Assembly: GCA_039190005.1 (NCBI GenBank)
Contig: JBCCYM010000001.1
Coordinates: forward strand, 36,024 to 100,023
Direction of reading: 5' to 3'
From: Pseudomonadota bacterium
Lineage (GTDB): Bacteria; Pseudomonadota; Gammaproteobacteria; UBA12402
Length of the DNA: 64,000 nucleotides
Position numbers and translations under genes: made by a program. The notes under the pieces are model-generated. The model was not told the DNA's origin. It saw nothing but the letters and a program-made list of their open reading frames with translations, and did no database searches. Shown here in pieces: positions 14,138-15,425 of this stretch. Within the stretch, counting starts at the first letter, position 1. Each line of letters begins with the position of its first letter.

Positions 14138-14236
14138 TGCTGTTTGGCGTTGCAAGGGTTGGCACCTGACAAGTTCGTCATGCTCGCTTTCCTTATCGTC
14201 CTTTCAATAAAAATGTTAAGCAGCCGCGCCTTGCCC

Positions 14237-14264
14237 TTGACATCGAATTAGGCAGTCTTATAAT
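14237..14264 (+). promoter_or_regulatory. Consensus sigma70 promoter upstream of the traT-like gene
   Basis: Perfect -35 TTGACA (14237-14242), 16-nt spacer, perfect -10 TATAAT (14259-14264), about 40 nt upstream of the ATG at 14304. Confidence 0.6.
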
Positions 14265-14303
14265 GGAATTTTTCACCCTAGATCATTTAAAGAGATTACG
14301 TTT

Positions 14304-15056
14304 ATGTTAAATGCTATTAAAGTGCCTCTAAAATTAGCAAGTGTCGTAGCTGTGTTTATACTTTCGGGTTGCGCGGCGACACAAACTATGGTCGCGCATC
14401 GTCACTTGGAAGTGCAAACCAAGACCAGTCAAAGTATTTTTTTACCGCCAGTAAAACCGGCTGAAAAGACTATTTATGTCGCTGTCAAAAATACCAGCGA
14501 TCAAACACATCTTATTATTCAGCCACAATTGGAGACCGATCTTAAACAAAAAGGATACACCATAACGCAAGACCCGAATGCCGCGCATTATATTCTGCAA
14601 GCTAATGTCTTGCAGGTAGGGCGACTTTCTGAAACCGCCGCCCAGCAAGCGCTGTTGGGTGGATTTGGTTCATCGGTCGCAGGTGCCGCGGTAGGCGCGT
14701 ATGCCGGCTCGGTGGCTACAGATGGTTCTGGTGGCGGTACACTCGCCGGTGGGCTGATCGGTTCAGTCGTGACCAGCATTGCCGATTCAGCTGTTAAGGA
14801 TGTCACGTACAGTATGGTTACCGATGTGCAGATCCAGGCACGTTTGCCCAAAGGGGAAACGGCGCAGTCGACAACAACCAGTCAGGTGCAGCAAGGCAGT
14901 GCCACGCAAACTAAAACACGTTTAAGTGATACGTCATCTTTTCAGACCTACCGTACCCGTTTGCTCAGTAGTGCTAATAAAGTCAATCTTAAATTTGATG
15001 AAGCGGAACCGGTATTGGCTAAGCAAGTCGCGCATAGTATTGCTGGTTTGTTTTAA
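14304..15056 (+). CDS. traT: TraT-like outer-membrane lipoprotein (complement resistance / surface exclusion family)
   Basis: Lipobox ILSGC. Collinear similarity to F-plasmid TraT along the whole length (LEVQTKTSQSIFL, VKNTSDQ, ILQANVLQ, YSMVTDVQIQAR, YRTRLLSSANKVNLKFDEAEPVLAKQVAHSIAGLF). 250 aa against about 243 aa for TraT. Confidence 0.8.
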   Translation: MLNAIKVPLKLASVVAVFILSGCAATQTMVAHRHLEVQTKTSQSIFLPPVKPAEKTIYVAVKNTSDQTHLIIQPQLETDLKQKGYTITQDPNAAHYILQANVLQVGRLSETAAQQALLGGFGSSVAGAAVGAYAGSVATDGSGGGTLAGGLIGSVVTSIADSAVKDVTYSMVTDVQIQARLPKGETAQSTTTSQVQQGSATQTKTRLSDTSSFQTYRTRLLSSANKVNLKFDEAEPVLAKQVAHSIAGLF

Positions 15057-15111
15057 ATAATCGTCGACAGGGTAATGTGGCTGGCCATAATGTTAGCCAC
15101 AGCCCTTCAAT

Positions 15112-15425
15112 CTTTCGACCCTTCGACAGGCTCAGGACAAGCAGGCTCAGTGTATAAGATGGCTGAGCTTGTCGAAGCCAAGGCACGGAGTCAGAAAGTT
15201 TGTGATGCCTTTCACTTCTTTCTTCAGCAGTTTCAGCATACAAGATGGCTGAGCTTGTCGAAGCCAAGACACGGAGCAGAAAGTTTGTGATGCCTTTCAC
15301 CTCTTTCTTGGGCAGTTTCAGCATACAAGATGGCTGAGCTTGTCGAAGTCAAGGCACGGACTCAGAAAATTTGCGATGCCCTTCGCCCTTCGACCCTTCG
15401 GCAGGCTCAGGGACCGGGGGTTCCG
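15112..15425. repeat. Dispersed modular repeat, copy 3, with an internal ~83-bp unit tandemly iterated about 2.7 times
   Basis: The unit (c/a)aagatggctgagcttgtcgaagccaaggcacggagtcagaaagtttgtgatgcctttcac...cagtttcagcata occurs at about 15158, 15241 and 15327. The array is flanked by cgacccttcgacaggctcagg modules. Confidence 0.85.

Follow-up and report, generated by a model that had tools for sequence, protein, structure and literature searches.

TraT is best described from plasmids of incompatibility group F (IncF), including F, R100, and pKpQIL, where it acts in surface exclusion and complement resistance, and its homologs also head the transfer (tra) operons of F-like plasmids in Legionellaceae, where some are annotated as YlpA-like. 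TraT is also found on chromosomes: among 399 TraT homologs in UniProt, 104 are chromosomal and these are spread over seven phyla (Seddon et al., Nat Commun 2025 16:659; PMC11733297). In that survey, the genes flanking chromosomal traT are variable and mostly unrelated, the predicted fold is unchanged, and traT is proposed to be a chromosomal gene that plasmids have taken up repeatedly (PMC11733297). A second study found that TraT homologs often have no link to conjugation and proposed that a rigid, abundant complex in the outer membrane impedes the insertion of pili or pore formers in a manner that depends on expression level (Commun Biol 2025; PMC12658005). Here, we describe a traT-family gene located between ddl and ftsQ in a 64-kb stretch of DNA (hereafter the window, i.e., the whole stretch that was analyzed) from contig JBCCYM010000001.1, which belongs to the metagenome-assembled genome (MAG) of an uncultured environmental gammaproteobacterium. 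This gene is one further example of the stand-alone chromosomal traT genes already known (PMC11733297; PMC12658005), and we consider it likely that it is an intact gene of this kind whose lipoprotein product acts as a surface barrier.

A full-length TraT-family lipoprotein and its relatives

The gene (14304..15056, + strand) was identified by its open reading frame (ORF) together with Pfam, PDB, and Foldseek matches, and it encodes a predicted outer-membrane lipoprotein precursor of 250 aa. Residues 35–250 match the TraT profile PF05818 with a score of 249.6 bits (cut-off, 31) over positions 2–214 of the 214 in the profile, and residues 23–249 match the sequences of the solved TraT decamers 9fs5 (F), 9fsm (pKpQIL), and 9e2v with an e value of approximately 1e-41. 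An AlphaFold2 model of the monomer, which was built from an alignment of 43 homologous sequences, has a mean predicted local distance difference test score (pLDDT) of 81.1. When this model was used as a Foldseek query the same three structures were the top matches (9fsm, 9fs5, and 9e2v; e values from 1e-22 to 3e-23, template modeling scores of 0.61–0.68), and PelC and LptE followed far behind. The presence of LptE among the distant matches agrees with a published remark likening the TraT core to LptE (PMC12658005). The modeled protomer thus matches the solved TraT fold, which comprises a β-sheet core, an extended hairpin, and two membrane helices. An earlier note on this DNA, made from the sequence alone, had claimed similarity to TraT from end to end; this claim holds up over the full length of the family profile as well as in the sequence and fold matches to the solved decamers, and the PF05818 score places the protein in the TraT family.

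The N-terminus has the features of a lipoprotein signal peptide, MLNAIKVPLKLASVVAVFILSG-C23, with the lipobox L-S-G-C. Cys23 (codon 14370..14372) is aligned to the first residue, Cys1, of the mature chains in the solved structures and is the predicted lipidation site and mature N-terminus. C23, D174, and R219 are invariant in the alignment of 43 TraT sequences, and D174 and R219 align with D170 and R213 of F TraT, which are the conserved luminal Asp–Arg pair of that protein (PMC12658005). A Gly/Ala-rich region spans residues ~118–160.

Upstream of the gene, a sequence matching the σ70 promoter consensus at all 12 of 12 positions, TTGACA-16 nt-TATAAT, is present at 14237..14264 (+ strand), ~40 nt before the traT start codon. 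Exact consensus pairs of this type with a spacer of 16–18 nt occur twice in the 64 kb, whereas 0.04 are expected from shuffled sequences. The perfect promoter motif that the earlier note had reported is therefore present, and we predict from its sequence that it is an active promoter. The other perfect match, TTGACA-N18-TATAAT (2956..2985, + strand), is located ~100 nt 5′ of a fatty-acid desaturase gene (3090..4076). The 166 nt that separate the ddl stop from the traT start (14138..14303) are unique sequence, and because they occur in no repeat we rejected the idea that the promoter region is part of one. A weak Shine–Dalgarno-like sequence, AAGAG (14290..14294, + strand), can be read 9 nt before the ATG and may serve as the ribosome binding site.

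To define the surroundings of the gene, Pfam scans covered the 43 other ORFs in the window that are at least 120 aa long, and none of these ORFs matches a conjugation family or an integrase. Likewise, a coupling protein and a relaxase used as tblastn queries had no match in the window. The absence of accompanying conjugation genes that the earlier note had asserted is thus borne out by both types of search. Neither of the arrangements typical of a traT in a tra operon, that is, traG/traS with traD/traI or the traY…traL order of Legionella, is present in the window, and the window has no tRNA genes. The scanned ORFs are either housekeeping genes or lack a Pfam family. They include glyS, genes for a haloacid dehalogenase-type (HAD) phosphatase, a desaturase, and major facilitator superfamily (MFS) transporters, glmU, glmS, ddl, ftsQ, and a gene for a family 2 glycosyltransferase (GT2), in addition to genes for an outer-membrane β-barrel protein, dciA, secA, genes for Mrp antiporter subunits, tatC, hemF, topA, yidC, mnmE, and glycolysis genes.

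The closest TraT sequence that we identified (P0002, 71% identity) is encoded between an endonuclease-like gene and genes for a type IV coupling protein (T4CP) and a TrwC relaxase. In a neighbor-joining tree, the window protein and P0002 form the sister group of four further homologs (P0003–P0006), apart from the clade of Legionella F-like plasmids. Among the remaining homologs, P0007 and P0009 sit in F-like tra or relaxase modules, and among metagenomic traT loci of at least 8 kb whose products have 41–50% identity, F-like tra genes adjoin traT in seven and are lacking in five. At least 4849 of the best 5000 plasmid matches are on conjugative plasmids. The identity of the window protein is 36–39% to IncF TraT and 47–50% to TraT of Legionella plasmids. 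One of the latter, the Legionella pneumophila plasmid NZ_CP015942.1 (locus L087), has two tandem genes annotated as traT (8236..8850 and 8953..9696), which lie between traY and traL where the F-like tra operon begins; the first traT is shorter and encodes 204 aa.

The comparison with the described systems is therefore as follows. With IncF TraT the window protein shares an alignment from the lipidated Cys to the C-terminus, the predicted protomer fold, the lipobox, the Gly/Ala-rich membrane region, the Asp/Arg pair, and a C-terminal KVNLKF motif; the gene differs in being chromosomal, outside a tra operon, and without traS, traG, or traD as neighbors, and its product scores below the equivalog cut-off for conjugal TraT. 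The Legionellaceae plasmid proteins are the closest named relatives and have the same length and motifs, but their genes head a tra operon (traY-traT-traT-traL-traE-traK…), whereas the window gene lies outside their clade and has no tra genes nearby. The category to which the window gene belongs is that of the chromosomal traT genes of Seddon et al., which include examples from Acidithiobacillus, Nitrosomonas, Vibrio, Campylobacter, and Fusobacterium: all are lone traT genes with housekeeping flanks and no tra operon, and their products are 30–50% similar to plasmid TraT and are predicted to fold in the same way. The window gene differs from these examples in its location, where it follows a double ddl and borders ftsQAZ on the 5′ side, in its perfect promoter motif, and in belonging to a small clade outside the Legionella plasmid clade in which the nearest relative is encoded on a conjugative module.

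The region upstream of ftsQ

The gene order around traT is glmU-glmS-ddl-traT-repeat-ftsQ. The ddl gene (11723..14137, + strand), the start of which overlaps the glmS stop, is not canonical: it encodes an 804-aa tandem fusion of two D-Ala-D-Ala ligases with two Dala_Dala_lig_N plus C modules (TIGR01205, 300.5 bits), and no murC or murB is found upstream of it. Downstream, ftsQ (15527..16222, + strand; POTRA_1 plus FtsQ_DivIB_C) is followed by ftsA, ftsZ, and lpxC, which were assigned by tblastn synteny.

For comparison, we scanned a genome collection with FtsA and collected 80 gammaproteobacterial ftsA loci (FtsA identity at most 67%), in 66 of which both ddl and ftsQ are visible. In these loci ddl ends ~12–340 bp (median ~130 bp) before ftsQ, and in none of the 80 is there a gene between ddl or murB and ftsQ. 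A scan of metagenomes with FtsQ gave no relative, and a separate FtsQ search of 5.8 billion proteins returned only the window's own protein, one match of 63% identity, and one of 34% identity, so that none of the collections searched contained a close relative of the host. The more distant match (locus L086) has the order murC-murB-ftsQ-ftsA-ftsZ-lpxC-dciA-secA with murB directly before ftsQ and no gene in between. Because traT is missing between ddl or murB and ftsQ in the 80 loci and in L086, it is an accessory rather than a universal gene at this position, as the earlier note had supposed.

The order ftsQ-ftsA-ftsZ-lpxC-dciA-secA is common to the window and L086, whereas the upstream order differs. 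The window's ddl is only 23–27% identical to ddlB in the 80 loci, and the adjacent arrangement of murC/murB, ddlB, and ftsQ that defines the canonical junction is absent from the window. Given the noncanonical ddl and the upstream glmU-glmS pair, the region 5′ of ftsQ is a rearranged breakpoint, and traT and the repeat that follows it are located exactly at this synteny breakpoint. The earlier description of traT as lying inside the conserved ddl–ftsQ junction is thus accurate in that the gene lies between ddl and ftsQ; the junction itself is not the conserved one.

The fusion belongs to a family of double Ddl proteins of 785–834 aa with 54–59% identity, the named members of which are annotated in Patescibacteria (candidate phyla radiation, CPR), Dependentiae, Parachlamydiales, and a few gammaproteobacterial MAGs. 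This distribution over symbiont and episymbiont lineages suggests horizontal spread. We also considered whether the placement of ftsQ after a double ddl is conserved and rejected this because the other carriers show unrelated contexts.

The 63% FtsQ match is encoded on an 800-bp contig from a TARA ocean metagenome (L085) that extends only 34 nt upstream of ftsQ. The ftsQ leader of the window (15480..15526) has a short motif, AATAAC-GTTTTAATG, in common with these nucleotides (L085 1..34). This shared motif suggests a native origin for the final ~45 nt ahead of ftsQ, with the repeat ending farther upstream.

The dispersed repeat and other features of the window

Between traT and the ftsQ leader, two structured features follow one another. 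A 10-bp stem-loop without a T-run (15076..15101, + strand) was found in the RNA fold of 15050..15440 and begins 20 nt past the traT stop. It was not called in the terminator scan, and it may serve as a transcript end or in stabilization. The second feature (~15104..15425, + strand) is a composite copy of a dispersed intergenic repeat that resembles repetitive extragenic palindromic (REP) elements, in which terminal motifs surround an amplified 85-bp unit. Its core (15156..15384) consists of 2.7 tandem copies of this unit with 91% matches and is flanked on both sides by the motif CCTTCGAC(A/G)GGCTCAGG, also written CCTTCGACCCTTCGAC(A/G)GGCTCAGG. This motif is the reverse complement of the internal GCTGAGCTTGTCGAAGC, and by virtue of this complementarity the two would form hairpins. 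The fold energy of 15050..15440 is −139.5 kcal/mol (z = −3.4 relative to shuffled sequences).

Repeat motifs or a unit of ~110 nt also occur at ~4119–4320 (+ strand), 6884–7010 (− strand), 60253–60271, and 61092–61204 (− strand), all of which are intergenic, so that the dispersed repeat 3′ of traT described in the earlier note is indeed present with copies at four other sites. The motifs recur in both orientations where none would be expected by chance. Copy number differs from site to site through local tandem amplification, and the copies have only 70–76 nt in common at 95–97% identity. An Rfam scan of 13900..15700 returned only noise below threshold and no family for the one repeat copy that it covered. 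With REP elements and bacterial interspersed mosaic elements (BIMEs), the repeat shares short, GC-rich, hairpin-forming units that are strictly intergenic, often 3′ of genes, and locally amplified; it differs in a sequence unlike any Rfam family and, for the copy next to traT, in the 85-bp tandem present 2.7 times. By its sequence features the repeat at 15104..15425 therefore appears to behave like a REP/BIME-type element. It is one of many genomic copies and no part of a mobile cassette. Two ORFs of 71 and 101 aa that run across it (15075..15290 and 15019..15324) are almost certainly spurious, and the copy near 4119 also yields a spurious ORF (4111..4488).

Elsewhere in the window, three ORFs stand out by their low G+C content at third codon positions (GC3). 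Two of them (50566..51960, 464 aa; 52400..53821, 473 aa; both + strand) have no Pfam family and a GC3 of 0.23; the first contains an internal direct repeat of 224 nt, and near-identical hairpin sequences are found 3′ of both (at 51989 and 53838). The third is an ORF of 1785 aa (33447..38804, − strand) with only a weak B_lectin match and a GC3 of 0.295. Unlike traT, these three ORFs are compositionally foreign, and they may encode acquired surface or effector-like proteins. At one end of the window, 63561..63986 (− strand) encodes the C-terminal part of 3-hydroxy-3-methylglutaryl coenzyme A (HMG-CoA) reductase, a gene that is cut by the window end. This enzyme of the mevalonate pathway is unusual in Gammaproteobacteria and is known in Legionella and Coxiella; its presence hints at the affinities of the host.

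Origin and role of the gene

The probable function of the protein as a surface barrier can be outlined by analogy with the solved TraT proteins. After export, the precursor would receive its lipid at Cys23 and be directed to the outer membrane, as the Ala at position +2 would allow, where it would probably assemble into a ring-shaped oligomer like those of F and pKpQIL TraT, with the Gly/Ala-rich helices in the membrane and the β-rich domain exposed at the surface. Transcription from its own consensus σ70 promoter would make TraT abundant and constitutive, and a strong private promoter is in keeping with a dose-dependent effect of the protein. The resulting barrier would lower the ability of the cell to receive F-type (mating pair formation type F, MPF-F) elements of the kind that carry the nearest relatives or, more generically, would hinder foreign machinery from inserting into the outer membrane. 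The REP-like hairpin array probably ends or stabilizes the traT transcript and may thereby buffer ftsQ from read-through.

The earlier note had named protection against complement or phages as the benefit for which the gene was kept. Complement as the selective force was extrapolated from enterobacterial pathogens, and it is an unlikely agent of selection here since the host is an uncultured environmental bacterium. We rejected a role in antiphage defense because PADLOC-DB returned no family at an e value of 0.01 or less and PHROGs returned only weak Gly-rich low-complexity noise.

Several observations weigh against this reading. The score of the protein with the NCBIfam equivalog for conjugal TraT (NF010291/PRK13731) is 175.6 bits and does not reach the cut-off of 445, so that equivalence of function with F TraT cannot be assumed; judged by its sequence, the protein is a true member of the family and no equivalog of the enterobacterial conjugal TraT. 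The helix region of the model (residues 124–162) is poorly predicted, with pLDDT values below 50, and the same membrane-helix region was of low confidence in the AlphaFold models of Seddon et al. (PMC11733297). The mechanism of TraT itself is unsettled in the literature (PMC12658005). Among the relatives, P0003 neighbors an acyl-carrier-protein-like (acpP-like) gene and a DUF374 gene, and P0005 neighbors HflX; given these chromosomal-looking contexts, the window gene may come from a lineage that is mostly chromosomal and whose function lies outside conjugation. P0004 has a ParA-like gene as its neighbor. Finally, only the MAG contig spans the join between traT and ftsQ: Logan contig L001, an independent assembly, has exactly the same ddl–traT join and ends 87 nt past the traT stop, inside the repeat. 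An identical ddl–traT contig is present in SRR22824305.

The GC3 of traT is 0.426, which ranks 23rd among 39 window genes (z = 0.27) and is typical of the host. The overall G+C content of the region is 0.48–0.53 in 400-nt windows and the second-position content of traT (GC2) is 0.458; we rejected this raised G+C content as a sign of recent transfer because it is due to Gly and Ala codons while GC3 is normal. With a codon composition that is fully host-adapted, any horizontal acquisition of traT would not have been recent. No remnants of the genes neighboring P0002 were found in the flanks of traT even at an e value of 10, and no direct repeats or target duplication bounding the gene were found. 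A small insertion, the route of arrival proposed in the earlier note, is consequently plausible but unproven, given the host-typical GC3, the lack of element remnants, and a promoter region of unique sequence. The transfer itself may have run from an element to the chromosome, or an element may once have captured a member of a chromosomal lineage.

Two other histories of the gene were weighed against these data. In one of them traT has long been part of the chromosome in this lineage and was never inserted, its role in the envelope is housekeeping-like (outer-membrane mechanics is one example), and P0002 reflects a capture from such a chromosome. Native codon composition, the chromosomal contexts of P0003 and P0005, the location among the envelope genes glmU, glmS, ddl, ftsQAZ, and lpxC, and the argument of Seddon et al. 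for a chromosomal origin with repeated capture by plasmids (PMC11733297) all fit such a history. However, the neighbors differ in every relative examined so that no conserved chromosomal locus emerges, 81 other loci lack it at the corresponding position, and a consensus promoter of its own together with a downstream repeat is typical of an independently acquired cassette; we therefore find this possible but doubtful. The alternative in which traT is all that survives of an integrated conjugative element or plasmid that has decayed, and is kept because it blocks superinfection by related elements, draws on the embedding of the closest homolog in a conjugative module, on the many relatives of 41–50% identity that head F-like tra operons, and on the documented mobilization of traT from plasmid to chromosome in Enterobacteriaceae (PMC11733297). 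We judge it unlikely: no remnant of a coupling protein, relaxase, or endonuclease-like gene appears even at the permissive threshold given above, neither an integrase nor a tRNA nor direct repeats flank the gene, intact housekeeping genes lie immediately on either side, the GC3 of traT is host-typical, and similarity to the P0002 locus (L082) ends at the ORF boundaries.

A different concern is that the MAG contig was misjoined at the dispersed repeat and that traT is no true neighbor of ftsQ. L001 carries the ddl 3′ end and traT and stops inside the repeat, and the repeat has at least four other copies in the window. Against this, a ddl two genes upstream of ftsQ recalls the ancestral order of the 66 of 80 loci in which both genes are visible, the stretch that the repeat copies share is below typical read or k-mer spans, and the ftsQ leader is unique and partly common to L085. 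A misjoin seems very improbable to us, and we consider the adjacency real because a chance misjoin is very unlikely to have placed a ddl two genes upstream of ftsQ. A further role could be imagined, in which the traT promoter, because the usual promoters inside ddlB are missing, provides a large share of ftsQAZ-lpxC transcription, the repeat sets the read-through into ftsQ, and the two form a regulatory front end of the division operon. We regard this as highly improbable; if true, the cell-division operon of this lineage would be under the joint control of a genomic repeat and an exclusion gene domesticated from a plasmid.

Our preferred interpretation thus remains that of a stand-alone TraT-family lipoprotein that probably forms a surface barrier. 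The example raises no new question, and its value lies in its clarity: an intact gene, a textbook promoter motif, and only housekeeping neighbors. Together with its conjugative sibling P0002, the window TraT offers a pair for comparing chromosomal and conjugative TraT function. It also adds a data point to the evidence that lone traT genes are widespread on chromosomes, where the protein had long been viewed as a factor for plasmid exclusion and serum resistance only.

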